From NCBI GenBank assembly GCA_020635905.1, contig JACJYV010000006.1, forward strand, positions 24,060 through 88,059: a DNA stretch of 64,000 nucleotides, given 5' to 3'. Positions 50,123 to 64,000 of this stretch are shown here, in pieces (the first letter of the stretch is position 1; the number at the start of each line of letters is the position of its first letter). The position numbers were made by a program, and so were the translations under genes. The notes under the pieces are model-generated. The model was given only the letters and a program-made list of their open reading frames with translations. It was not told where the DNA came from and did not search any database. This DNA is from Bacteroidia bacterium (lineage in GTDB: Bacteria; Bacteroidota; Bacteroidia; J057; JADKCL01).

Positions 50123-51598
50123 CTAATTTATCTTATACAAAAACACCTTCCAGCCTCCATCTTTCAAATCAAATTCCTCCCGGGAAAACTGACTCAAATA
50201 ATCCCCCAATGCCCCTCCAGGAGCTTCAGGGCGCACCACAGCCAGATAATTTGCCCCCAAACCACGCAAATCCTCCGTCACCTGTGCATTGAGAAATTTT
50301 TCCATCACAGACCAGCCATAGCGCCTCGCACGATACAGGATATGAGGTGCCCGAATATCCAGTCCGCCGTAAGAAACGGCCACCAGGGCATCCTTGGGGG
50401 TATTTTGCTGAATCATATACCCTGCCCCCACAGGAATAAATCCCACCTGATAGTAATTTTGCTCTGCAAACCTGAAACCATAAAAGGCAAAGCCCAAAAG
50501 CATGACCAGCCCCGCCATTCGTCCAAAAGCGTAAAGACGGCCTCCCAAAAGTGAGGAAATCCTTTCCATACCCAGTCCTACAGCCAGCGCCAAAGGCGCC
50601 ATCAGGGGAATCTGATAATAATTGTGGACGGCATTCAGGTTGAAAAATACAAACAAGGACAAAAAAGTAGCCAGGAACCAAATCCACAGAGTTTTTCGCT
50701 CCTTTCTACCTGCAAAAATCAATCCCACAGGAGCAAGCAAAAGCCCGGGCGTGCCCAGGATTTCGTACCTGATCCGTTGCAAAATCAGTTCCCAGTTTTC
50801 CCAGTCAACGCGCTGAAACCAACTGCCCAGATACCAGTAAGCCATTTTATCAAAACGATGATACTCAGGCAAAAAACTCCAATCAGGCGCCTGTCCATTG
50901 ACCCGAACCACATGCCTTTCCCAAAGTATAAACAGGATTACGGGAACAATCAGGAGGGGAATTCCCTTTAACAAAAGAGTCCACTTTCTTTGAGAAATCA
51001 GGTAAATCCCGAGGGGCAAAGCAAAATACCAGGCATAAGGCACCTTTACCAGAAAAGCCAGCGACATAAAAAGGGCTCCCAAAATTAACTGAAGGGGATT
51101 TTCATGCCTCAGCCATTGCCACAAATGGTAAAACATGGCGTGGGCGAAAAAGACCGCACAAAAGTCAATGTGGATGGCACGGCTGAAATAAATGCCCAAA
51201 GGCATACTCAGATAAACCAGGGTGGACAGCTTCGCGGCGAACGTATTGGGCAGGATCAAGGTAAGAATACGGTAGAAATAGAAGGCAGCTCCACAGAAAA
51301 ATAGCAGGGTTACCAGCCTGGACCAGAAATGGGCGGGCCCAAACAGGCGGTAAAGTATCGCTGAAAGGGCTTCGGGCAGGGGAAATTCCAGAATGGTGGT
51401 TTTATAACCTCCCATCCAGCAAACGGAAGGATGAAGAATATCAATGCCCTCTTCGTAAAAAGACCAGGCATATTGCGCGGTGTCGCACTGGCGCCAGGTG
51501 TGGGGCCCGTCGATCAATTCCCCAAAATGCAAAAAGCGCATTCCCACCAGAATCACAACCAGAAAAAGGAACCACCAGGGTTGAAAGATTTTGCGCAA
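50123..51598 (-). CDS. GT-C membrane glycosyltransferase (ArnT/PMT, GT39-like)
   Basis: HTWRQCDT and LEFPL in the first periplasmic loop; many TM helices. Confidence 0.8.
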   Translation of the reverse strand: MRKIFQPWWFLFLVVILVGMRFLHFGELIDGPHTWRQCDTAQYAWSFYEEGIDILHPSVCWMGGYKTTILEFPLPEALSAILYRLFGPAHFWSRLVTLLFFCGAAFYFYRILTLILPNTFAAKLSTLVYLSMPLGIYFSRAIHIDFCAVFFAHAMFYHLWQWLRHENPLQLILGALFMSLAFLVKVPYAWYFALPLGIYLISQRKWTLLLKGIPLLIVPVILFILWERHVVRVNGQAPDWSFLPEYHRFDKMAYWYLGSWFQRVDWENWELILQRIRYEILGTPGLLLAPVGLIFAGRKERKTLWIWFLATFLSLFVFFNLNAVHNYYQIPLMAPLALAVGLGMERISSLLGGRLYAFGRMAGLVMLLGFAFYGFRFAEQNYYQVGFIPVGAGYMIQQNTPKDALVAVSYGGLDIRAPHILYRARRYGWSVMEKFLNAQVTEDLRGLGANYLAVVRPEAPGGALGDYLSQFSREEFDLKDGGWKVFLYKIN

Positions 51599-51686
51599 AA
51601 CTCATTCAAATTGAGGCAGGTAAGTTAAGGGAAATCTCCCTGAATATCCCTATTTTTATATCAGACAGTACACAATACTTAGCCAC

Positions 51687-52289
51687 ATGTCCAAGAGAAC
51701 AATCCGGGAGATCCTCGCCGAAACGAAGATCTTGTACAAATTTCACGTGCCTGATATGCTGGAGCAAAAGCTCCCCGTCACCCCCCTCAGCGAGGCCGAA
51801 TTGAGCCTTTGGGAAGCAGAAGCCAACGCCCCTTTCCCCCCTGATTTCAGGTCATATCTGGGACTTTGCAATTTTTTCATCCAGTTTGAATCCCACTTTT
51901 CCACCCTTTCAGGCAAAGAAGCACATCAGATCTGGAAAAAGCTCAACGAGGATCTGAAAATGGGAAAATTTGCAGGTTTGGCTGATCTCAATGAAATTGA
52001 ATTCAATAATTACGGCATTCAGGAAAAGAAAATCAGGAATACCTGGTGGCATCCCAAATGGATTCCCTTCGCCCGCGACACCCACGGCAACCTCAAATGT
52101 GTGGACCTTGATCCCCAGCGCCAGGGGGTGAAAGGACAGATTCTGGAAATGAATTTCAAAGATGGAATCGGGCCCTACATCACGGATTTCGAGTCATTTT
52201 CCGACTACCTTGAATTTCAACTGGATTGTCTGATTGATCACCGTTACCAGGTGATCAACGGGGAAGTTTCCATCGAAGAGGGCATTTAA
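51687..52289 (+). CDS. SMI1/KNR4 family protein
   Basis: WWHPKWIPFARDTHGNLKCVDLDP..GVKGQI; ELSLWEAEANAPFPPDF. Confidence 0.9.
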   Translation: MSKRTIREILAETKILYKFHVPDMLEQKLPVTPLSEAELSLWEAEANAPFPPDFRSYLGLCNFFIQFESHFSTLSGKEAHQIWKKLNEDLKMGKFAGLADLNEIEFNNYGIQEKKIRNTWWHPKWIPFARDTHGNLKCVDLDPQRQGVKGQILEMNFKDGIGPYITDFESFSDYLEFQLDCLIDHRYQVINGEVSIEEGI

Positions 52290-52346
52290 AAGGCAGTTTT
52301 CTCAGAATTTTCCTACCTTGGCAGGCAGATGGATCAAGATTTGCCC

Positions 52347-53081
52347 ATGCCCAAATACGCACTTATTCTTGGCGCGACTTCTGACATTGCCCGTGCAGTT
52401 TCTCAGCAATTTGCAACCCATGGGTATCATTTGTACCTGGCAGGACGAAATTGGGAAGCCATTCACGCAGAAGCCAGCGATCTGAAGATCCGTTTTCAAG
52501 TTGAAGCTGTTCCCGTGCGTTTTGATGTGCTCGATTTTGATTCCCATGCCGCCATTTGGAATGGATTGAATCCCAAACCCGAAGTGGTGGTTTGCGTGGT
52601 GGGTTATATGCCAGAACAGGAAGATTCTCAAAAGGATCTGGCCCTGGCCCGCAAAGTGATGGATTCCAATTTTACGGGATGCGCCAATTTTCTGAACCTG
52701 GTAGCCAATGATTTTGAAGCTCAGAAAACCGGAAGCATCATTGGAGTTTCCTCCGTGGCAGGTGATCGGGGAAGGGCGAAAAACTACCTCTACGGGGCCG
52801 CCAAAGCAGGATTTACGGCTTATCTCAGCGGGCTCAGAAACCGCCTTTCCAAATCGGGTATCCAGGTTTTGACGGTCAAACCTGGCTTTGTGCAAACCCG
52901 CATGACAGAGCACCTGGAACTCAAAGGTGCACTGGTCGCCACGGCTGATCAGGTGGGAAAAGATATTTGGAATGGATTTCGCAAAAAAAAGAACGTAATT
53001 TATACCAAGGGGATTTGGAAATATGTCATGTTGGTCATTCGCCACATTCCTGAGAGGCTATTTAAAAAAATGAACTTATAA
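52347..53081 (+). CDS. SDR oxidoreductase, DprE2-like
   Basis: LGATSDIA, SSVAGDRGR, YLYGAAK, GLRNRL, TVKPGFVQTRMT and HIPERLF motifs. Confidence 0.8.
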   Translation: MPKYALILGATSDIARAVSQQFATHGYHLYLAGRNWEAIHAEASDLKIRFQVEAVPVRFDVLDFDSHAAIWNGLNPKPEVVVCVVGYMPEQEDSQKDLALARKVMDSNFTGCANFLNLVANDFEAQKTGSIIGVSSVAGDRGRAKNYLYGAAKAGFTAYLSGLRNRLSKSGIQVLTVKPGFVQTRMTEHLELKGALVATADQVGKDIWNGFRKKKNVIYTKGIWKYVMLVIRHIPERLFKKMNL

Positions 53082-53084
53082 TCC

Positions 53085-54527
53085 ATGGAGCCCGGGGGGC
53101 ACAAATACAAAATCACCTCTGAAGATGGCTACAGGCTGGCCGGGATGCTCCTTTTTTACCTTGGCTGGGTGCTTTACCATTGGGAAAAACCCTTTTTCTG
53201 GGATACCATTCTCCATGCCAAAGCAGCTTCCTGGTATGTGGAAACTCATTTTGAATCTTTGGTTTTGCCTCAGGGGCTGGATGCCGGGCATACGCCCGGG
53301 TTCAACCTGTATCTTGCAGCAATCTGGTCCCTTTTGGGACGAAATCTGCTGGTCAGTCACCTGGCCATGCTGCCATTTGTACTTGGGGCGGCTGCCTCCT
53401 ATTTTCTGCTGGTGAATCGGGTTTTGCCTGAAAAAGCCCGTCCATTTGCCCTGATTCTGTTCCTGCTGGAACCTGCCTGGCTTACCCAAACCACCCTGAT
53501 CAGTGCAGACCTGGGATTGGTTTGTTTTTTTCTGTTATGCCTGCATTTACAGGTTTCCGGCCAGCGAAAATGGCTGGCTTTGGCCCTGATTGGGCTGGCA
53601 TTTGTCACATTCAGGGGAATTTTTGCCGTTGGGGCGTTGGTTTTGTTGGATATTTTTGAAAACGGAGCCAAAATTCAGGTCAAAGAAATCCTCAAAAAAG
53701 CTCCCTCCTACCTCCCCGTGGCCGTTCTGATCAGCCTTTGGCTGATCTGGCACCACCAAAAAGCGGGCTGGTGGCTGGCCCCTCCCGCCGAAACTTATGG
53801 CGAACATCGCCAGTTGCTGGGGTTGGGCGGCATGCTCAAAAATGTAGCCGTGATTGGCTGGCGCTTCCTCGACACAGGACGGGCCTGGCTTTGGCTCTTT
53901 TTGCTCACCATGCTTACCCTGGGCATCTGGCGCAAATGGAATCCAGACCCTGAATTCAAAAGGCTGGTACGCCTTTTTATCCTGCCCAGCCTGCTGCTCG
54001 GGCTAATATTCGTTCCCTTTTCCAATCCCATTGGCACCCGCTACTTCATGGGCAGTTTTCTGCTGTTTGGGTTGTTGGTAGCCTGGATTTTCACCCGCAT
54101 CCAATCCTCCAAAATTCGCCTCGTCCTGATGATTGGGCTGGGTCTGGGCCTTTTGAGCGGACATTTCTGGATTTATCCTGATTCCATTTCCAAAAACTGG
54201 GATTCCACCCTGGCCCACACGCCCTACTTCAATCAAAGGCAGAATATGGCCGATTTTCTGGCAGAAAACAAAGTGGATCCCAGCCAGATTTGTACGGACT
54301 TCCCCAATATCAACGGCTTTCAGTACACGGATTTGCAAGGACCTGACGCACCCTTTGGCTCTAAATATGAAACAGGCTGGACCAATTGCCAGTTTGTCTG
54401 GTATTCTAATATTTTCAATGGATTTTCTGATCAGGAATTGGAGGATTTGAAAAATCCCAACCAATGGAAACTGATTAGAAAAATGGGAAGCTGGCCTGTC
54501 AGAACTGAATTGTACCAGAAAAAATAG
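53085..54527 (+). CDS. GT-C membrane glycosyltransferase
   Basis: FFWDT acidic loop motif, DAGHTP, many TM helices and a periplasmic C-terminus. Confidence 0.7.
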   Translation: MEPGGHKYKITSEDGYRLAGMLLFYLGWVLYHWEKPFFWDTILHAKAASWYVETHFESLVLPQGLDAGHTPGFNLYLAAIWSLLGRNLLVSHLAMLPFVLGAAASYFLLVNRVLPEKARPFALILFLLEPAWLTQTTLISADLGLVCFFLLCLHLQVSGQRKWLALALIGLAFVTFRGIFAVGALVLLDIFENGAKIQVKEILKKAPSYLPVAVLISLWLIWHHQKAGWWLAPPAETYGEHRQLLGLGGMLKNVAVIGWRFLDTGRAWLWLFLLTMLTLGIWRKWNPDPEFKRLVRLFILPSLLLGLIFVPFSNPIGTRYFMGSFLLFGLLVAWIFTRIQSSKIRLVLMIGLGLGLLSGHFWIYPDSISKNWDSTLAHTPYFNQRQNMADFLAENKVDPSQICTDFPNINGFQYTDLQGPDAPFGSKYETGWTNCQFVWYSNIFNGFSDQELEDLKNPNQWKLIRKMGSWPVRTELYQKK

Positions 54528-54534
54528 GTTCGCT

Positions 54535-56490
54535 TTAAGGTAAAGTATCCTGAGGAAGATTTTCCAGTGGAATCAAATGCCCCACACTGTACCAGCTATC
54601 CCCCTGACGGCCTTCCAACAGTAATTCATCATATCCCCCTTCAACCAGATCAGGAGGCAGGGAAATATCAAACACATTCAGGCCTCCCAGAGGGGAAATT
54701 TCAGGCAGAATTTCCATTTTAAACAATTTCTCACCCTCTTTCAGAAACTTGAGGGTGTAAATGTCATTATTGTCGAGGGCGATGGAAAAGAAGGCAAAAT
54801 GCACCACCCCGGGCATCTGAATATGCAGGGGACGATAGCGCCAGATTCTCACGGACCCGGGCGAAAGAAAGGCGTCGCCTTTCTTTTTGGGAACCTGAAG
54901 GTCTTCCAGTTTCACAAACATGGGCCCGGGATTGCGGTAATATTCCTGGTTGATGAGGTGGTTATACCTGCCCAAATTCATTTTCACTATTTCCTTCAAC
55001 CGCACCCCAGACCAGATGGGCCCACGGGTAATGACCTTCAAATGTTCGTAAAATTCGGCCAGATTCTGGTCAGAAAGCTTGTTTTCGTCTGTGGCCAGCG
55101 TTTCCAGAAAGCCGTCAGGCATGATGCGGGTAAAATGGCCGATGCGCCAGTCGGGGTCTTCCATCATGGGCAGGCGGGAAATGAGGGCGCTGCTCAGCGC
55201 CCAAAGATCGGCCACATGGGCCTGCGGGCCCTTGCTGTAACTGGAAAAGCCCATGGTATCGTAATATTTCACCTCGCGAATGGTCTTGCCCATGGGCGCC
55301 TCATCCAGCTGCCGCTCAGATTTCAGCGCCAGCATTTCATCGTTCAGGTAAAGCAAAGCAGCCTCTTTCAGATACCAGCCCCTTTCGTCCGCCACCCCGT
55401 GGGGGTCGATCAGGCCCTTGCGGGGAGGATCGGGCACTGCCCGCACATACAAGGGGCTGCGCGGATTGAGCAGCCCGGCCAGCGCAAGTATCCCAAAGGG
55501 AATCCATTTGACCTTTCCAACTGGAAAATGCAGCCCCAGCAGGATCATTCCCAGCATAAAAGGAGCAGAAAAAAAGCGGCCAGACATGAAATCTCCTCCT
55601 ATTTTCAGCACATAAAGCAGATACAACAGCAAGCCCAGGGCCAGAGCCAGGCTTTTTCTGCCCGATTTCAAGCCCAGAATCAGGCCTAAAAAAATCACCA
55701 GCAGGGTGACCGGGTCCCAGCGCAGGGAATTGGCATAATACCAAAAGCCTTGTCTGGCCAGATCAAGGGCAGAAATATCTGTATTGAGCTTGGCATAGGC
55801 CGTATTGGGAAAGGGAAATCCGTAATAAATGAGGGCGAAGCCCTCCCAAAAAATAAAGGGCAGAAAGCCCGCCAAACCAGCCAAAAGGCTTTTCCACGAA
55901 CGGACCTGCCACCAGGCAAAGAGCAGGGCAGGCAGATACAGCAAAAGCGTATCCATGCGATTGAAAACCCCTAAACCCGCGATCAGGGCCAGCAGAAAAA
56001 CTGATTTTTCATCTGCACGATCCCCCAGAAAAACCGCGGCAAAAAGCACCAGCAACAGGTGATTGAGGGAATTTTCCAATCCTGAGGTAGAATATTCCAC
56101 AAAGGATTTGGATAGGAAAAAGAGGATCAGAATTCCCAAAAAGCCACTTCCAGTCAGAATTTTCCGGCCAAAAATCCAGAAAGCGATCAAACTGATGCCT
56201 GTGCCCAGCAAAATTGAGGTGAAATAAGCTTCCCCCGTGAAGGCATAAAAAAAGCTCATTACCAGCATCCAAAGGGGATTGGTAAAAGTTTGCACCCGCT
56301 CATCAATATTGAAAACGGGGCCGTAGCCATGCAGAAGGTGAAAACTGGAACGAAAGGTAATGTAGGCGTCGTCGCCTGCCCAGGCATTGCGCAGCACCAC
56401 CACCACAAAAACCAAACCCAGGCCAGATATCCAAAACCAGGGATTGTCCCAGGGCCTGGATCGGACGGAAAGAGTTTCTGTGACTGGCAT
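54535..56490 (-). CDS. AftB-like GT-C glycosyltransferase (arabinofuranosyltransferase-like)
   Basis: DDAYITFR...GYGPVFNIDERVQTFTNPLW, SGLEN, RMD, YYGFPFPNTAYAK, GGDFMSGRF, DERGWY and RIGHF motifs. Confidence 0.8.
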   Translation of the reverse strand: MPVTETLSVRSRPWDNPWFWISGLGLVFVVVVLRNAWAGDDAYITFRSSFHLLHGYGPVFNIDERVQTFTNPLWMLVMSFFYAFTGEAYFTSILLGTGISLIAFWIFGRKILTGSGFLGILILFFLSKSFVEYSTSGLENSLNHLLLVLFAAVFLGDRADEKSVFLLALIAGLGVFNRMDTLLLYLPALLFAWWQVRSWKSLLAGLAGFLPFIFWEGFALIYYGFPFPNTAYAKLNTDISALDLARQGFWYYANSLRWDPVTLLVIFLGLILGLKSGRKSLALALGLLLYLLYVLKIGGDFMSGRFFSAPFMLGMILLGLHFPVGKVKWIPFGILALAGLLNPRSPLYVRAVPDPPRKGLIDPHGVADERGWYLKEAALLYLNDEMLALKSERQLDEAPMGKTIREVKYYDTMGFSSYSKGPQAHVADLWALSSALISRLPMMEDPDWRIGHFTRIMPDGFLETLATDENKLSDQNLAEFYEHLKVITRGPIWSGVRLKEIVKMNLGRYNHLINQEYYRNPGPMFVKLEDLQVPKKKGDAFLSPGSVRIWRYRPLHIQMPGVVHFAFFSIALDNNDIYTLKFLKEGEKLFKMEILPEISPLGGLNVFDISLPPDLVEGGYDELLLEGRQGDSWYSVGHLIPLENLPQDTLP

Positions 56491-56599
56491 TTTCAGGGTT
56501 GACTGGTGTTTCTTGGAATCTGGAAATATCTGGGCGTAAATTTAAGGAAACTCCCCATCCAAACCCTCCCAACATGGATATTTTGGCTAAATTGGTCTG

Positions 56600-58240
56600 A
56601 TGAAGTCTGAAAAAGGGAAAAATGGCTTGTACTGGGCCCTCTTTGCGTGTCTGCCCCTGCTGTATTTTTTTCTTTTTGGACGGTCAGGTTGGTCAGACAC
56701 CGATCAGGGCTTCATTCAGGGTCTCAGCTGGAGAGTTATTTGCGGACAAATTTCCTACCGCGACTTTTTCTACGTCAGACCCCCTCTCAGCCTGTATTTG
56801 CATAGCCTGGAACTGAGATTATTGCCCGAAAACCACGCCATTCTGCTCAGCAGACTCAATTGTTACCTGATGATGGCGGCCAGCGTGCTTTTTTTCAGCC
56901 TTTCGCTCAAAAAAGTCCTGTCCAAAGAGGAAAATATGTGGAACTGGCCCCTGTTTGCCAGCCTTGGCTTTGTGATTTCCGTGCACAACTATCCTCCCAT
57001 GCCCTGGCACACGGTTGACGGCATTTTTTTTGCCTCACTGGGCTTCTTTCTACTCATTTCATTTCCAAACTGGAAAGGAATGGTGCCCGGCATGGCAGCC
57101 CTGTTTCTGGCCGCCCTCTGCAAGCAACCCTTTTATCTGGCTCCCGTTCTGGGATGCGTCTTGATGGCCCTGCAACCTGATTTTAGGGTGATTCGCCTGG
57201 TGCCCCCCTTGGTGACATTATTACTTTGTGTGGGAATTTTTCTGGGCTCACTTTACTCTCTGGATTCTCGCCTGCCCGGCCTGTTTCTGGCCCAAACCTC
57301 TGGTTCCACCTCCCTTCAGGATCTGTTTGCCGCAGGCATTTCACCTTATTTTGTGCCATTTCTTTTGATTTGCGCCCTTCTTTTTACCCGTTGGATTCTG
57401 TTGCGCTGGTTTCCCAGGCAAAAATGGATGGGCCAACTTTTGCAATGGAGTCCTGGATTTTATTTTGCGCTGGCACTTACCATTCTCATGTACCGTGCTT
57501 ACAAAACGGAGGCATTTCAGGCCCCTGGACTGGGTTACAGTCAGCTTTTGCTGTTGGCTTCTGTCTTTTGGGGAACCCATTTTTTCCGTGAAAAACGCGA
57601 AGCAGCCACCCTGATTCTGGCGCTGACGGGCATTTCCTGGGCCGCAGGCATCAGTTGGGGCTACCCTTTTCCCATCATGGCGGCCACGCCTTTGCTGGCG
57701 GGTTCCCTCATGTTTGCCAGAGTGCTTTATCCAGAAAATTTACCCCGTTTCACCCTCCATCTGGCACTGGGATTTTGCATTCTGGTCTCCTTCTATTTGT
57801 ACCAGTTTCCCTATCGCGATTATCCCCGGGCTGAATGTGTGTACAATCTGGGAGATCATTTTCCAAAATTGTCTGGCATCAAAACGGGACCTTTCTTTTA
57901 CGCCAAATATGGGAATCTTGCAGAGGAACTGAGCAAACTGGGTCAGAAAACCTGGATGGTGATGCCCGCCATGCCCCTGGCCCACTATCTTCACGGCCAA
58001 TCTCCCCCTCCCATTGCAGACTGGGTGCACAACGCGGAAATCAACTGGGACAAAAATAGGGCTGAAATCACCCGACGCCTGGATCAGGAGGTGGAAACGG
58101 TGTTTCTGGAGTTGGATAAGCTGGATGAAGCAGAAAAAGGCGGGAAATATGGCGCGAAACTTGCAAGGTATGTGAAGGAAAATTGGAAATCTGCCTATAA
58201 AACTCCCTATTTTGAGGTTTACCAAAACCCGTTTCGTTAA
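56600..58240 (+). CDS. GT-C membrane glycosyltransferase
   Basis: DTDQG...GQISYRDFFYVRPP loop motif; many TM helices. Confidence 0.7.
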   Translation: MKSEKGKNGLYWALFACLPLLYFFLFGRSGWSDTDQGFIQGLSWRVICGQISYRDFFYVRPPLSLYLHSLELRLLPENHAILLSRLNCYLMMAASVLFFSLSLKKVLSKEENMWNWPLFASLGFVISVHNYPPMPWHTVDGIFFASLGFFLLISFPNWKGMVPGMAALFLAALCKQPFYLAPVLGCVLMALQPDFRVIRLVPPLVTLLLCVGIFLGSLYSLDSRLPGLFLAQTSGSTSLQDLFAAGISPYFVPFLLICALLFTRWILLRWFPRQKWMGQLLQWSPGFYFALALTILMYRAYKTEAFQAPGLGYSQLLLLASVFWGTHFFREKREAATLILALTGISWAAGISWGYPFPIMAATPLLAGSLMFARVLYPENLPRFTLHLALGFCILVSFYLYQFPYRDYPRAECVYNLGDHFPKLSGIKTGPFFYAKYGNLAEELSKLGQKTWMVMPAMPLAHYLHGQSPPPIADWVHNAEINWDKNRAEITRRLDQEVETVFLELDKLDEAEKGGKYGAKLARYVKENWKSAYKTPYFEVYQNPFR

Positions 58241-58255
58241 ATTAAACCAAACCTA

Positions 58256-60403
58256 ATGTCTTCATTCCCTTTCAAAATCATGTTTTTCATCGCCTGTTTT
58301 CTGGTGGTCCGTCCCGTGATACAGGCCCAGAATGAGGAGGTGGATGCGCGAAATGGCTGGGGAATGGCGCCCTACGGGCATTTTCACGTACTGGTCATCT
58401 TTGCCGAAATTGATTTTGATTCCTCCTACGGCCACCTCAATCCTACCCCTAAAGGGGGCTCCAAAGACTGGAAAGAGGGCCAATTGCCCTGGTGGCGCAA
58501 TTCCCTGTTCGACAAAGACACGGACCGCGACGCCTTCAACGGATACATGACCCAGTATTTCATGGAGGCTTCTTTTGGCAAATTTCACGTTACAGGCGAT
58601 TACATAGATTCCCTGATCAGCATTCCCATCAGTTCCATTCGCAATCAGGCTGGGAAAGTAGTGACCCAGGAACCGTTTGGGAATAATTTTTACCGCAAAG
58701 CCGTGATCGAGCGGGTGAATCAGATTGGGTTGAAAACGGCCTATGGAAGCACAGAAGCAGATTTTGATCGCTGGACTCTTTCTGGCGCTGGCCTACCCAA
58801 AAAGGAAACTCCCAACGAAAACTGGGACATGGTAATGATCATCTGGCGCAATATTCACGTCAAAAATCTGGGCGACCAAAGTGGATTTGTGACCCCTGGA
58901 AATTTCGGCAAGATTCTGGGCCGCGATACGGACAGTTACAGCATGTTCAGAATGAGCTTTTTTGTACCCAAAACCATCATGCGCCACGAATTTTCGCACA
59001 TGTTGTATGGAGGAAACAACTTTCACACCGCGGCCGCAGGCGTGGGTGCACGCACCTTTCTGGCCCCTGCGGGAGGTTGGAGCAATATGAGCAACGCGGG
59101 CCGCTGTTCGCCCACCTGGAATGCCTGGGACCGGGAACGCATGGGTTGGAAAAACCCGGAAAAAGCCTATCTACTGAGTGCCATGTGCGAACTGGGCCGC
59201 GAGGAAGTGCCCACTTCCCTTGAGTACGGACAGGAATTTCCCTGTGGTCAGGGCAAATTTATCCTGCGGGATTTTGTGACCACGGGAGATGCAATCAAAA
59301 TCAAATTGCCTGTTTCAGAAGGCCAGAAACAGCAATATCTCTGGCTGGAAAATCACCAGCTTTTGCCCGGCAGAATCGACCATAATAAGGCGATGTCCAA
59401 AGGCATTTATGCCTTTATTTCTGTGGGCAAGGACGATCTGACGGGTTCTCAGGCCTATGGCGAAGCCAATAATTACACCTGGCCTTTGGTCGCAGAGGGA
59501 AATTTCGACTTTGGCTACCGCCCCTCAGACAAAACCCTGCTCATGGATGACGCAAACGCCAATAAATTCACGGGCATCAATTACCTGATCACCCACGCCG
59601 CCGACCTCAATAATGACGGGATTATTCAAACGGCTTCCATTGGTGAAAATGTTGAAAATTTTCGTCCTGAACGCCTGGAAATCAACGGAGTGGCACCACC
59701 TGAAGAATATTTTTCCTACCGTACCCTGCCCGAATTTGGCACCAGTAAAATGGCCTGGGGTTTGGGGAAATACAATAAGATTGGTCTGGACGAAAACCCC
59801 ACTGCCGTACCCGTGCTGACGCATTTTACCCCGGGAGATCAGCCCCAAAACACGGATATGCGCAGGATTTTGCTCAACGGCATTTCCGTCACGGTGACGC
59901 AGGAAGATTTCAACGGGGATGTACATGTGAAAATTCGCTGGGATGATTTTGATCTGAGCCATGATGCGCGGTGGTGCGGAAATATCCTGGCCCGCGAAGG
60001 GTTCAATCTGCGCAACGGGGCCAAAATCAGTCTGGAACAGGGCCTGACCCCGCAAAATCCACGGGCTGTGCAGGAAATTGAAGGAAAGAAAATCTTTGCT
60101 GAACCCACCGTGCTGGAAATCGGGTCGGGCGCCACAGTAGAAATGGCCTCCAACACGGAAATTTTGGTAAAAAAGGGCTCCACTCTGCTGATCAGGGCGG
60201 GTTCCAGTCTCAATATGGAGCGAAATGCAAAAATCACGGTGGAGGAAGGGGGATTTCTGTACGTTGAAAAGGGAGCATCCATTTCCCGCAAGGGTCCGCG
60301 TACAGGATTTATTTATGAAGATGCAAACGTGGGCCTTAACACGCTGATGGAAGCCAAATTAGGGCCAGTGCTGCCCATTGATGCTCCACCTTCGGGGCGA
60401 TAG
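58256..60403 (+). CDS. Secreted metalloprotease, M6/immune inhibitor A-like
   Basis: Signal peptide; VLVIFAEIDF; HEFSHMLYG; WDRERMGW; WLENHQ; beta-helix-like C-terminus. Confidence 0.7.
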   Translation: MSSFPFKIMFFIACFLVVRPVIQAQNEEVDARNGWGMAPYGHFHVLVIFAEIDFDSSYGHLNPTPKGGSKDWKEGQLPWWRNSLFDKDTDRDAFNGYMTQYFMEASFGKFHVTGDYIDSLISIPISSIRNQAGKVVTQEPFGNNFYRKAVIERVNQIGLKTAYGSTEADFDRWTLSGAGLPKKETPNENWDMVMIIWRNIHVKNLGDQSGFVTPGNFGKILGRDTDSYSMFRMSFFVPKTIMRHEFSHMLYGGNNFHTAAAGVGARTFLAPAGGWSNMSNAGRCSPTWNAWDRERMGWKNPEKAYLLSAMCELGREEVPTSLEYGQEFPCGQGKFILRDFVTTGDAIKIKLPVSEGQKQQYLWLENHQLLPGRIDHNKAMSKGIYAFISVGKDDLTGSQAYGEANNYTWPLVAEGNFDFGYRPSDKTLLMDDANANKFTGINYLITHAADLNNDGIIQTASIGENVENFRPERLEINGVAPPEEYFSYRTLPEFGTSKMAWGLGKYNKIGLDENPTAVPVLTHFTPGDQPQNTDMRRILLNGISVTVTQEDFNGDVHVKIRWDDFDLSHDARWCGNILAREGFNLRNGAKISLEQGLTPQNPRAVQEIEGKKIFAEPTVLEIGSGATVEMASNTEILVKKGSTLLIRAGSSLNMERNAKITVEEGGFLYVEKGASISRKGPRTGFIYEDANVGLNTLMEAKLGPVLPIDAPPSGR

Positions 60404-60484
60404 CAGATCACCCGTGGATTTCTCGTCCGTCAAAAGAAAAACTTTTTAGTATCTTGGCATCCAAATTCAACTTTTTACCCGCAA

Positions 60485-61099
60485 ATGCTGCATACGGATT
60501 CCCAAAAACCGAAAAATTGTTTAGCTGCCTTCGATTTTGACGGGACCATCACGACCAAGGATTCAGGGATTGAATTTATCCGTTTTACCCGGGGTACCTG
60601 GCGTCTTTTCTGGAGCGGAATTTTCCTCTCTCCCACCCTTCTCTTTTGGAAAATGGGCCTTTACCCACGGGAAATGGCCAAAGAGCGTTTTCTGAAATGG
60701 CATTTTGGGGGTAAGACGATCACGGAAATGAAGCAAAAAGGGCAAGCCTTTGCGAAGGAGGTCATTCCCAACATCCTGCGACCTCAAGCCATTGAACGCA
60801 TTGAATGGCACAAGGAGCAGGGCCACAAAATTGTGATTATCACCGCTTCCCTCGATTTTTGGGTCCGTCCCTGGGCCGAATCGCAGGGATTTTCCTGCAT
60901 AGCCACCGTGCCCAAAGTGGAGCAGGGCCGTTTTACCGGGCAATTGGGCTCGCCCAATTGCTATGGGCAGGAAAAGGTGGACCGCCTCAAAAATTCAGGC
61001 CTGCCCAAATGGGACTTCCTTTTTGCCTACGGCGATACCGCAGGCGACAAGGAATTGCTGGCCTTTGCAGATCAGTCTGAATTTAAGCCGTTTAGGTAG
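60485..61099 (+). CDS. HAD-IB family phosphatase
   Basis: AFDFDGTIT, ITASL, NCYGQEK and YGDTAGD motifs. Confidence 0.92.
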   Translation: MLHTDSQKPKNCLAAFDFDGTITTKDSGIEFIRFTRGTWRLFWSGIFLSPTLLFWKMGLYPREMAKERFLKWHFGGKTITEMKQKGQAFAKEVIPNILRPQAIERIEWHKEQGHKIVIITASLDFWVRPWAESQGFSCIATVPKVEQGRFTGQLGSPNCYGQEKVDRLKNSGLPKWDFLFAYGDTAGDKELLAFADQSEFKPFR

Positions 61100-61808: not shown

Positions 61809-62795
61809 TCATTTGCAATCCCCATTTCGAATTATTGAAAGATTATTTGGAATTGGGAGATTATATTCTGGTTTTGGTCGCCCTTGTATGGATAAAGGGA
61901 GTTGCGAATTATAATTTTGAATTACTGATTGTAGCAATTCGTAAGTGATAAAAGATTTATTACGAATTAGGTGAGTTATGTGGCCAACCTCGGGATTTGA
62001 TTTGAATGCTTCAAAATCTGTTAAAATTTCCGGAAATTGGTGTTGTTTCCCATTAATTCGGTCAATCGTTTCTTTTGAATTAGTTGATGTGAGATGGCGA
62101 GAAACTGGGTCAAAATATTCAATATCATCTGGATTTCCATCTTCACCTAAATGGTCAATTTCTATTGGGAAAAGTGGAAATTCTGGTATTATCCACCATC
62201 CACTTACTGATTGTTTTAGGCTTTCTATAGTGAATGGTTTTTTTGAATAAAGAATTGCTCCTTGAATTAGCTTATATTCAGTTCCAAATTGGGAAATTCC
62301 ACATTGACGAAGGCCTATAAGATTTAGAATGGGGGAATCTTTCTGTCTGGAATAAAAAAACTGCCACTCGGGAGAATACTGGTTAACCTTTACATTTTGG
62401 CTATAAGCTTTGGTCTTCTCGTCAACAACATTAACTAATTCTTCCTCTTTAAGACAAGCATTCCATTCTCCCAATACGAGACTGGGCGATTTCCCTTGAT
62501 TTGTTGGCGGTAGGATGCCATTTGGAACAAATAAGAACTCAGAGCCAAAGGCTAATTCCTTGTTGAGATTAATTGGACGCCATGTAATTTCATATCCAAA
62601 TCGGTCCTGTGTTGGAAGGCTTATCTTTTGAGTTGAAGTTAAAAAGGACTTCTTAGCATTTAACCCCAAGTCGGGCAAGGGGCTAGCAGGTTGAAAATTG
62701 AGTCCCTGGTTGGCATCCAATGCCTTTGACAGGGATTCGTCCTCTCCTGCACCAACCCCAAGAGCCTTCGAGATATTTGATAAAAAATCAAACAT
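61809..62795 (-). CDS. Hypothetical protein, translationally coupled to the upstream Ser/Thr-rich gene
   Basis: 328-aa AT-rich ORF; start overlaps the upstream stop by 8 nt. Confidence 0.7.
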   Translation of the reverse strand: MFDFLSNISKALGVGAGEDESLSKALDANQGLNFQPASPLPDLGLNAKKSFLTSTQKISLPTQDRFGYEITWRPINLNKELAFGSEFLFVPNGILPPTNQGKSPSLVLGEWNACLKEEELVNVVDEKTKAYSQNVKVNQYSPEWQFFYSRQKDSPILNLIGLRQCGISQFGTEYKLIQGAILYSKKPFTIESLKQSVSGWWIIPEFPLFPIEIDHLGEDGNPDDIEYFDPVSRHLTSTNSKETIDRINGKQHQFPEILTDFEAFKSNPEVGHITHLIRNKSFITYELLQSVIQNYNSQLPLSIQGRPKPEYNLPIPNNLSIIRNGDCK

Positions 62796-64000
62796 TATTT
62801 GTTTCTGATTGCGCCTCTGTAGTTTGAGAAATTGCCGAATTTCCAGTCACAATAGGGGCCGCAGGAGGCCAAAATGCCTTCGCTGCAATCTTTGCCTTTG
62901 TTAGTTCAACTTCCTGCCGATTTTTTTCCGTTTCAATATTTCTCCGATCCTCCAGGTATTTTTCGGTCGCAGGCTGCCTTCCCACTTCAGATTCCATATA
63001 GTAAGCCCCGGCATTTACGGCCACCTCGTCTTCCTGCAAAAGCATCGTATCCTGAAATAAGAATGGGATTTTTTTGAGCTCATCCAAAGCAATTTTAAGC
63101 TTATCAATTTCCGATACCTTTGGCTGAAGGATGGTTTCAAAGGTCTCCCTCGATAGGTTTGTACCTTGCAAAACGCCTAATGCACCATTACCCGAAAGCA
63201 GTCCCGGCAGAAAGTTCCCATAATGCATCATTGCTTTTCTTGCTACGATCGCCGAAAGAATGGCCCAACGCGGAGATTGGTCTGAGTTTGGAAATATCTT
63301 TCCAATTTCTTCCAATTCAAATACCCGCATATCGGAAATACCAGTGCCAGCAACCATTTCAACCCCGGTGTCAACCACAATCTTTACATCTGCCAGATGC
63401 ATTTTAATCCCGTACAAATTTTGGATCTGAAAAAAATGGTAATTAACGCTGCGACCCATATTGGGGTTTTCAATGTGAATTGTCTCTTTATTGGAGGAGG
63501 TTTCCGAAAACTCCATATTACTCACGGTCGAAAACTCCAGTTTATTATTAGAAGATGTTTCACTGGCAACCTTTTTGATAGAATTCCGACTGTTTTTGAT
63601 GAGGGAATCCGAACTTTGGTTGCTAAGTTGGCGCCCTTCTTCTGAAAGGCTCAGCCCAAGGGCATTTTCCCCCGACTGGGTCCAGGTCGAAGTATCCGTC
63701 CCGCCCCGCTTATAGCCTCCATCCATGCCGGTTTTAAATATCCCAATGTCAAATTTGGTATCTGCATTGATATCATATTCGAAGGTCCGGGTGGTGGTAT
63801 TTGTGGTTGATGCAGAAGATTTTGACGAGGAATCCAATTGTGATTTAGATTTATTTTCCTGTTCACTGCTTTGCTTTGCCCCAAACGAAAACTCATTGGC
63901 CAGGTTTTCCTCAAAAGAGGAGGATTGCTTTGAACCTACCTCCTGGGAGCCGCTTTGAGACTGGGTCAATTTGCGTGAAATAGTGGTTTGTTTTTCAATC
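62788..64000 (-). CDS. Ser/Thr-rich uncharacterised protein, 5' end outside the window
   Basis: Frame is open to the window edge (IEKQTTISRK precedes the called TTG); long S/T/Q/E-rich segment, then IENPNMGRSVNYHFFQ and a C-terminal coiled coil. Confidence 0.75.
   Translation of the reverse strand, partial: IEKQTTISRKLTQSQSGSQEVGSKQSSSFEENLANEFSFGAKQSSEQENKSKSQLDSSSKSSASTTNTTTRTFEYDINADTKFDIGIFKTGMDGGYKRGGTDTSTWTQSGENALGLSLSEEGRQLSNQSSDSLIKNSRNSIKKVASETSSNNKLEFSTVSNMEFSETSSNKETIHIENPNMGRSVNYHFFQIQNLYGIKMHLADVKIVVDTGVEMVAGTGISDMRVFELEEIGKIFPNSDQSPRWAILSAIVARKAMMHYGNFLPGLLSGNGALGVLQGTNLSRETFETILQPKVSEIDKLKIALDELKKIPFLFQDTMLLQEDEVAVNAGAYYMESEVGRQPATEKYLEDRRNIETEKNRQEVELTKAKIAAKAFWPPAAPIVTGNSAISQTTEAQSETNNV

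Follow-up and report, generated by a model that had tools for sequence, protein, structure and literature searches.

Described D-arabinofuranose systems

The best-known D-arabinofuranose (D-Araf) glycan assembled on a lipid-linked donor is the mycobacterial cell-wall arabinan, a major drug target. D-Araf is also added by a few known side-chain and pilin systems of Gram-negative bacteria. In mycobacteria and corynebacteria, the decaprenyl-phospho-arabinose (DPA) pathway comprises the UbiA enzyme Rv3806c, the phosphatase Rv3807c, DprE1 and DprE2; the arabinofuranosyltransferases are AftA-D and EmbA-C. GtrA-type proteins (Rv3789) are the flippase type proposed for mycobacteria. The subject here is a gene cluster in a Bacteroidia bacterium, located at positions 50123-61099 of a 64,000-nucleotide stretch of DNA (the window). 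Together with two genes on another contig, this cluster probably encodes a cytoplasmic polyprenyl-phospho-D-arabinofuranose pathway which feeds several periplasmic arabinofuranosyltransferases acting on an envelope glycan. Judged by its genes, the window would carry most of the system, which appears to be split between two contigs.

Three-component pentofuranose systems consist of a polyprenyl-phosphoribose synthase, a MATE flippase and a GT-C glycosyltransferase of family GT136 (Kelly, Whitfield et al., PNAS 2024, PMC11127046). DprE1/E2 homologues accompany the systems which add Araf, and a GT-C of this type accepted both ribofuranose (Ribf) and xylofuranose (Xylf) donors; systems of greater complexity, with several GT-Cs, also exist and have yet to be studied (PMC11127046). 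Neither the paper nor its supplement contains an example from Bacteroidota (PMC11127046). In Pseudomonas aeruginosa, group IV pilin is glycosylated with D-Araf by a system of TfpW and the DPA-like genes PsPA7_6245-6249 (bioRxiv 10.1101/2020.04.19.049825; PMC11127046). No characterised case was found in the literature on D-Araf glycans or DprE genes in Bacteroidota. The principle is known already from mycobacteria, the Pseudomonas pilin and the three-component systems; the variant described here is uncharacterised in this phylum.

Gene content and comparison with described systems

The genome (G000) measures 8.48 Mb in 29 contigs and encodes cargo proteins of the type IX secretion system (T9SS), which agrees with its placement in the Bacteroidota. 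The analysed span, window positions 50123-61099, contains eight genes:

50123-51598, minus strand: GT-C membrane glycosyltransferase, PMT_2/ArnT-like, 491 aa (Pfam PMT_2, 32.3 bits; cut-off 26.1)
51687-52289, plus strand: SUKH/SMI1-KNR4 gene, immunity-type, outside the system
52329-53081, plus strand: DprE2-like short-chain dehydrogenase/reductase (SDR), 250 aa (PRK07102; match to solved DprE2)
53085-54527, plus strand: polytopic GT-C, 480 aa, without a Pfam model (predicted fold); translationally coupled to the SDR
54535-56490, minus strand: AftB homologue (GT-C), 651 aa (match to AftB structure); convergent to the 480-aa gene
56600-58240, plus strand: GT-C, 546 aa, a second family without a Pfam model (predicted fold); first gene of a GT-C/M6-like/HAD run
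58256-60403, plus strand: secreted M6-like zinc metallopeptidase-like protein, 715 aa, HEFSH motif (weak TIGR03296 match)
60485-61099, plus strand: HAD-IB phosphatase, 204 aa (TIGR01490, 122.6 bits; cut-off 98.3)

The run of 546-aa GT-C, M6-like and HAD-IB genes is transcribed divergently from the 651-aa gene. An earlier note on this DNA had proposed a lipid-linked pentose (arabinose) system from six genes: four for GT-C membrane glycosyltransferases (one with AftB-like motifs), one for a DprE2-like SDR and one for a HAD-IB phosphatase. All six genes are present in the span with the characters claimed for them; the SUKH gene and the 715-aa M6-like gene had been left out of that inventory. At least seven GT-C genes are recognised in the genome and four of these fall within a single 8-kb stretch of the window, so their clustering is far above chance placement.

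The locus resembles the mycobacterial system in having homologues of UbiA, DprE1 (40% identity) and DprE2 (30%, reciprocal best hit). It also encodes an AftB homologue in which all characterised residues for catalysis and donor binding are kept and, as in mycobacterial arabinan assembly, several different GT-C enzymes. However, the host is a diderm member of the Bacteroidota and the genes are split over two contigs. The phosphatase is of the HAD-IB type and not Rv3807c, which is unrelated to HAD-family phosphatases (Kelly et al., PMC11127046). No GtrA/Rv3789-type flippase was found in the genome. Sequence comparison detected no homologue of AftA, AftC, AftD or Emb; two GT-C families without a Pfam model are found instead. 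Also unlike mycobacteria, the locus has a conserved secreted M6-like peptidase partner, and Ala stands in place of Cys387 of Mycobacterium tuberculosis (Mtb) DprE1.

Like the three-component systems, the predicted pathway would proceed from polyprenyl-phospho-Ribf derived from phosphoribosyl pyrophosphate (PRPP), through a HAD-type phosphatase and optional DprE1/E2 epimerisation, to periplasmic transfer by a GT-C. It shares with them a UbiA synthase and an associated HAD phosphatase, and the two are encoded in one operon in the related genome G014. In contrast to those systems, HAD is a separate gene here and is not fused to UbiA, the cluster has no MATE gene, the genes lie outside an O-antigen locus, and there are four GT-Cs, including the AftB homologue. 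The Pseudomonas group IV pilin system is a further Gram-negative case in which homologues of DprE1, DprE2 and UbiA supply a periplasmic GT-C with lipid-linked D-Araf. That system has the single multifunctional TfpW and an adjacent gene for the protein acceptor, whereas several GT-C families occur here. The features which distinguish the locus are its host phylum, the stand-alone HAD-IB protein, the combination of an AftB homologue with two GT-C families lacking a Pfam model, and the secreted M6-like partner.

Enzymes of donor synthesis

UbiA and DprE1 are absent from the window, as the earlier note had stated. A search of the genome located both, as an overlapping gene pair on contig C25. The UbiA-family gene (G000:C25:103917-104789) scores 239.9 bits on NF008977, the model for decaprenyl-phosphate phosphoribosyltransferase (cut-off 234). 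It overlaps the gene for a 456-aa DprE1-like FAD oxidase (L006:8590-9960, minus strand), which matches solved DprE1 at 2e-92 and is 40% identical to Mtb DprE1 over 403 aligned residues. When residues are mapped from the alignment, the oxidase keeps Y60, H132, K134, Q336 and K418 of Mtb DprE1, which are important (catalytic) residues of that enzyme. The position of Cys387, the covalent benzothiazinone-binding site, is occupied by Ala (residue 382). By analogy, the oxidase would not be expected to be inhibited by benzothiazinones.

The best curated family for the SDR is NCBIfam PRK07102, which it matches with 337 bits, over the cut-off; the DprE2 equivalog ranks second, under its own cut-off, and the third-ranked curated family scores 108 bits. 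Among all solved structures DprE2 is the top match (1.3e-30, full length, 30% identity), and the runner-up stands at 7e-15. The alignment takes in the distinctive C-terminal helix YVM.V.RHIP, which reads YVMLVIRHIPERLFKKM in the SDR and YVMMVLRHIPRSIFRKL in DprE2. When DprE2 was searched back against all open reading frames of the genome, the window SDR came first (4e-32), a paralogue on contig C12 second (8e-23) and the rest at 4e-10 or higher; the SDR and DprE2 of the PDB are thus reciprocal best hits. In a maximum-likelihood tree, DprE2, the window SDR, 12 of its orthologues and the C12 paralogue form a clade with 100/100 support, and 18 other SDRs of the genome fall outside it. Given its long branches and small choice of outgroups, the tree supports the description "DprE2-like", not identity of function. 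The SDR is predicted from its sequence to be a polyprenyl-phospho-2-keto-erythro-pentofuranose reductase, which is the second half of a 2'-epimerase.

The C12 paralogue (C12:739188-739922) is a second DprE2-like SDR, with about 31% identity. In a related genome, G038, an SDR paralogue lies beside a second DprE1-like paralogue (C76:315356-317475). This pairing hints at another, separate epimerase pair within this order.

The HAD-IB protein is predicted, again from sequence, to be a polyprenyl-phospho-5-phosphoribose 5'-phosphatase. It belongs to a family other than that of Rv3807c and does not match NF006088, the model for HAD-UbiA fusions.

GT-C glycosyltransferases

The 651-aa protein matches AftB (PDB 9dlf) at 7e-12 as a single sequence. 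A profile of its family (44 homologues) matches AftB at 2.6e-41, in three stretches which together cover the greater part of the transmembrane and juxtamembrane core. Residues D61, D62, T91, E172, R221, T274 and R372 of AftB correspond to D40, D41, T70, E139, R178, T230 and R305, and all seven are identical. They are invariant or nearly so in the family alignment; D41 is invariant in the 44 members. The DD motif lies at the tip of juxtamembrane helix 1, where D40/D41 align with D61/D62 of McAftB. In AftB, D62 of this motif is the catalytic nucleophile, R221 and R372 are essential phosphate ligands, and T91, E172 and T274 contact the donor (PMC12041299). The C-terminal domain aligns weakly with that of AftB, and on the AftB equivalog NF041481 the protein scores 43.9 bits (cut-off 1050). 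It is therefore a distant homologue which keeps the donor site, not an orthologue. It is predicted on this basis to be a retaining beta-D-arabinofuranosyltransferase.

Two further AftB-like genes are found in the genome. One (C12:485992-487941) is a paralogue which matches the window copy at 7e-123 and overlaps a GT4 glycosyltransferase gene. The other (C24:680827-682410) is distant, with a match of 5e-12, and carries PMT_2.

The 480-aa and 546-aa proteins have no match in Pfam or NCBIfam, and their family profiles match nothing in the PDB by sequence. Profile-profile comparison among the 480-aa, 546-aa and 651-aa families was insignificant (probabilities 5-26%). As sequence profiles were uninformative, fold prediction was required for these two proteins. 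AlphaFold models, built with alignments of 62 homologues for the 480-aa protein and 75 for the 546-aa protein, have a mean predicted local distance difference test (pLDDT) of 93.6 and 94.9 and a predicted template modelling score (pTM) of 0.93 and 0.94, respectively. The top 18 Foldseek matches of the 480-aa model are all GT-C, and include ALG12, ALG9, ArnT, AftB, AftD, EmbB and AftA. The 546-aa model matches ArnT (top), AglB, STT3, PglB, Pmt4 and ALG9 at probability 1.00; for both models, the matches at this probability are exclusively GT-C enzymes. The two families can be assigned confidently to the GT-C fold on the strength of these models.

Each family has an invariant Asp after the first transmembrane segment (TM1). 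In the 480-aa family it is D40 of an FFWD motif, just after TM1 and before juxtamembrane helix 1; in the 546-aa family it is D35 of a DTDxGF motif. These match the position of the catalytic Asp in GT-C enzymes of the A subclass, which is placed just after TM1 (PMC12041299). The gene for the 480-aa protein begins 3 nt after the SDR stop codon. The 491-aa protein is a generic PMT_2 GT-C.

Co-occurrence and gene order in relatives

Co-occurrence was counted in a single set of 41 related genomes. The SDR is found in 30 of these, DprE1 in 29 and UbiA in 30. SDR and DprE1 occur together in 29 genomes, the SDR occurs alone in one, and neither is present in 11; UbiA is found in 28 of the 29 DprE1-positive genomes. 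The association of these core genes persists outside the window's own family (p ~1e-6 to 1e-7). The 546-aa GT-C is found in SDR-positive genomes alone (20/20). Orthologues of the 491-aa protein are likewise confined to DprE1-positive relatives (12/12) and are never beside pathway genes. This association is confounded by phylogeny, and of the four GT-Cs the 491-aa protein has the weakest claim to membership of the system.

Gene order joins the SDR, the HAD-IB gene, the 480-aa, 651-aa and 546-aa GT-Cs, UbiA and DprE1. In G014 (locus L029), UbiA, DprE1, SDR and HAD-IB form one overlapping operon with HAD last. UbiA, DprE1 and SDR are contiguous in G025 and G028, and the SDR lies within about 2 kb of DprE1 in eight relatives. 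Ten other genomes in the family have the 480-aa GT-C next to the SDR, and at least eight have the 546-aa GT-C next to the M6-like gene. The order 546-aa GT-C, M6-like, HAD recurs at three loci, L033, L034 and L035. L033 is a 40-kb metagenome contig of a Bacteroidia metagenome-assembled genome; HAD, M6-like, 546-aa, AftB-like, 480-aa, SDR, DprE1 and UbiA genes lie there within 14 kb, a cluster which holds every part but the 491-aa GT-C. Part of this synteny is ancestral, since neighbouring TatD and GT2 genes are also conserved. L034, another metagenome contig, carries SDR, 480-aa, 546-aa and M6-like genes, followed on the same strand by the gene for a 310-aa membrane protein and then by HAD. 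Taken with the presence of UbiA and DprE1 in the genome and the clade of the SDR, this synteny supports the lipid-linked pentose (arabinose) system which the earlier note had suspected, as far as genes can predict it.

The 310-aa protein (L034:11931-12863, plus strand) is encoded between M6-like and HAD, has about six hydrophobic segments and belongs to no Pfam family. L035 has a gap of similar size at this position, and the window has no such gene. The protein is a candidate flippase or acyltransferase.

A UbiA-DprE1-SDR operon is also found on a plasmid of Chondrinema litorale, a member of the Cytophagales (NZ_CP111066.1, 7378-26679; L037). The UbiA of this operon is annotated as decaprenyl-phosphate phosphoribosyltransferase. 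Its flanks carry an AftB-like gene, a DUF2723 gene, two acyltransferases and two genes whose annotation, GT39, denotes a GT-C family. As the operon is plasmid-borne, the pathway may be horizontally mobile in Cytophagales. More widely, a DprE1-like gene is present in 72 of 401 sampled Bacteroidota genomes (38 of 180 genera). AftB-like proteins number in the thousands (>4000) across Bacteroidota, Chloroflexota, Zixibacteria, Desulfobacterota and some Bacillota, and most are annotated as hypothetical.

The M6-like protein

The 715-aa protein has a signal-like hydrophobic segment at its N-terminus. It matches the M6 domain model TIGR03296 at 3.3e-12, under the cut-off of that model, and has no Pfam match even at E = 1; against the PDB, the profile gave a weak beta-helix match alone (E = 0.024). 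When 40 members of the family are aligned, E245, H248 and H257 show no variation and H244 almost none. About 290 representatives of the family are found at E <=1e-30, and in one member a GT2 domain is fused to the protein. A T9SS sorting domain, which marks its bearers as surface proteins, is present in 12 of the 40 aligned sequences and absent from the window copy. It is 49-53% identical to the genes at the same position in L033, L034 and L035. A scan of the genome contigs with peptide patterns of the protein, which are narrow, returned one locus. The gene is a conserved member of the cluster, and its product could be an acceptor, a processing enzyme or an accessory subunit.

Proposed mechanism and alternatives

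Synthesis would begin at the cytoplasmic face of the membrane, where the UbiA-type enzyme encoded on C25 would move 5-phosphoribose from PRPP to polyprenyl phosphate. The HAD-IB phosphatase (60485-61099) would then remove the 5'-phosphate. The DprE1-like FAD oxidase from C25 would oxidise the 2'-OH, and the keto intermediate would be reduced by the DprE2-like SDR to polyprenyl-phospho-beta-D-Araf. A flippase would carry this donor across the membrane. Up to four GT-Cs may spend it in the periplasm; the AftB homologue probably forms beta-linked Araf by a retaining reaction, and other linkages probably come from the 480-aa and 546-aa enzymes, which would give an Araf oligomer or decoration on an envelope acceptor. 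The earlier note had suggested LPS, proteins or EPS as candidate acceptors. The secreted M6-like protein may act together with the 546-aa GT-C. The mechanism is drawn from homology, from the conservation of catalytic residues, from the GT-C folds and from the synteny and co-occurrence of the genes; every chemical step is inferred, as are the flippase, the acceptor and the nature of the lipid.

Several points weigh against the arabinofuranose pathway. The SDR scores 184.9 bits on the DprE2 equivalog NF053786 (cut-off 250), and the DprE1-like oxidase 444.8 bits on the DprE1 equivalog NF053785 (cut-off 500); with both under the NCBI equivalog cut-offs, the two proteins are to be read as homologues and not as certified equivalents. 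No flippase or transporter gene is found in the window cluster, L029, L033, L034 or L035, and a genome search which did not extend to MATE transporters found no GtrA-family protein. When the window's own family is left out, the GT-Cs do not co-occur significantly with DprE1, and for this reason the association is downgraded as independent evidence for them. The modules are dispersed in most relatives, and tight 11-kb clustering is seen in this genome and L033 only. Lastly, G018 has 480-aa-like and M6-like genes (C42:172720-174042 and C36:10661-12613) and a weak UbiA (33% identity; C57:46461-47312) with neither DprE1 nor SDR. The 480-aa and M6-like families therefore do not strictly need the epimerase and may accept a non-epimerised donor; G018 may have a ribofuranose version of the system.

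The gene set of G018 bears on what the GT-Cs use as donor. Some or all of them might take polyprenyl-phospho-ribofuranose or another epimer, with the epimerase serving a subset such as the AftB homologue. This would agree with the relaxed choice of donor in a known GT-C, which took Ribf and Xylf alike (PMC11127046), and with the additional paralogues, the SDR on C12 and the SDR-DprE1 pair in G038. It is nevertheless unlikely: in 10 other genomes in the family the 480-aa GT-C is the direct neighbour of the SDR, in the window 3 nt separate the two, and the 546-aa GT-C is restricted to SDR-positive genomes in all 20 cases. It is very unlikely that the juxtaposition is largely coincidental, with the GT-Cs being ordinary envelope enzymes which use hexose or aminoarabinose donors (ArnT, PMT or RgtA-like) separately from the DprE pathway. 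Such a reading would suit the 491-aa protein, which matches generic PMT_2 alone and is never syntenic with pathway genes. It would also suit the insignificant profile comparisons among the other three GT-C families and the shared ancestry which explains part of the L033 synteny, where the housekeeping neighbours TatD and GT2 are conserved. Against it, the linkage survives rearrangement: the genes are on one strand in L034, in divergent modules beside UbiA-DprE1 in L033, and in G014 HAD is inside the operon. In addition, the AftB residues which contact arabinose and phosphate are all kept.

The acceptor could also be a protein. The lipid-linked arabinose might O-arabinosylate a specific secreted or surface protein, as in the Pseudomonas group IV pilin, with the M6-like protein as substrate or processing enzyme. 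The conserved pairing of the 546-aa GT-C with this secreted protein points in that direction, as do the T9SS sorting domains of the wider M6-like family (12 of 40 members). Among the Foldseek matches of the 546-aa model are oligosaccharyltransferases (AglB, STT3 and PglB) and a protein O-mannosyltransferase (Pmt4); however, the top match is ArnT, which is a lipid A glycosyltransferase. The M6-like protein of the window is without a T9SS domain, and nothing points to an acceptor sequence. Protein O-arabinosylation is rather doubtful. It should be noted that it is a sub-case of the arabinofuranose pathway proposed above and does not contradict it.

Wider implications

It is conceivable, although the idea is tentative, that Bacteroidota and the other phyla which bear AftB-like proteins build a D-arabinofuranan-like envelope glycan with beta-Araf caps, using non-mycobacterial GT-Cs and an M6-like partner. 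If this is true, D-arabinan is not a speciality of the Mycobacteriales, and its wider occurrence could explain the D-arabinan-degrading enzymes of gut and environmental bacteria. The locus and its wide conservation predict an unrecognised class of D-Araf envelope glycans in a major phylum of environmental and host-associated bacteria, and suggest natural non-mycobacterial substrates for D-arabinanases. The putative retaining AftB homologue and the two new GT-C families are candidate enzymes for glycoengineering. Organisms of this kind could also provide non-pathogenic models for the biochemistry of DprE1, DprE2 and AftB.

Neighbouring genes and other features

The SUKH gene (51687-52289) was considered as a member of the cluster and rejected, as it is absent at every syntenic locus. 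It lies 40 nt upstream of the SDR and is probably a stray from the population of immunity genes found elsewhere in the window. Sigma-70 promoter-like sites were at background level in a scan which does not cover Bacteroidota promoters. Terminator-like sites were modestly above background. Both kinds of site are uninformative.

The HAD gene is separated from a TatD/187-aa/GT2 block by genes for proteins of 328 aa and 1239 aa, a fragment of a DUF772 transposase and a Uma2 gene. This region occupies window positions 61809-64000 and G000:C26:85868-92300 (L036:1869-8235). In L033 the TatD block abuts HAD directly, and the extra genes therefore look like an insertion of about 7 kb into the ancestral neighbourhood. 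The GT2 glycosyltransferase is conserved near the cluster in three genomes (G000:C26:93731-94831, minus strand; L033:2990-4051; L034:575-1666), and the G000 copy lies outside the window. It is a Glycos_transf_2/Glyco_transf_21 protein with C-terminal transmembrane segments, and it may be a further component or may merely reflect ancestral synteny.

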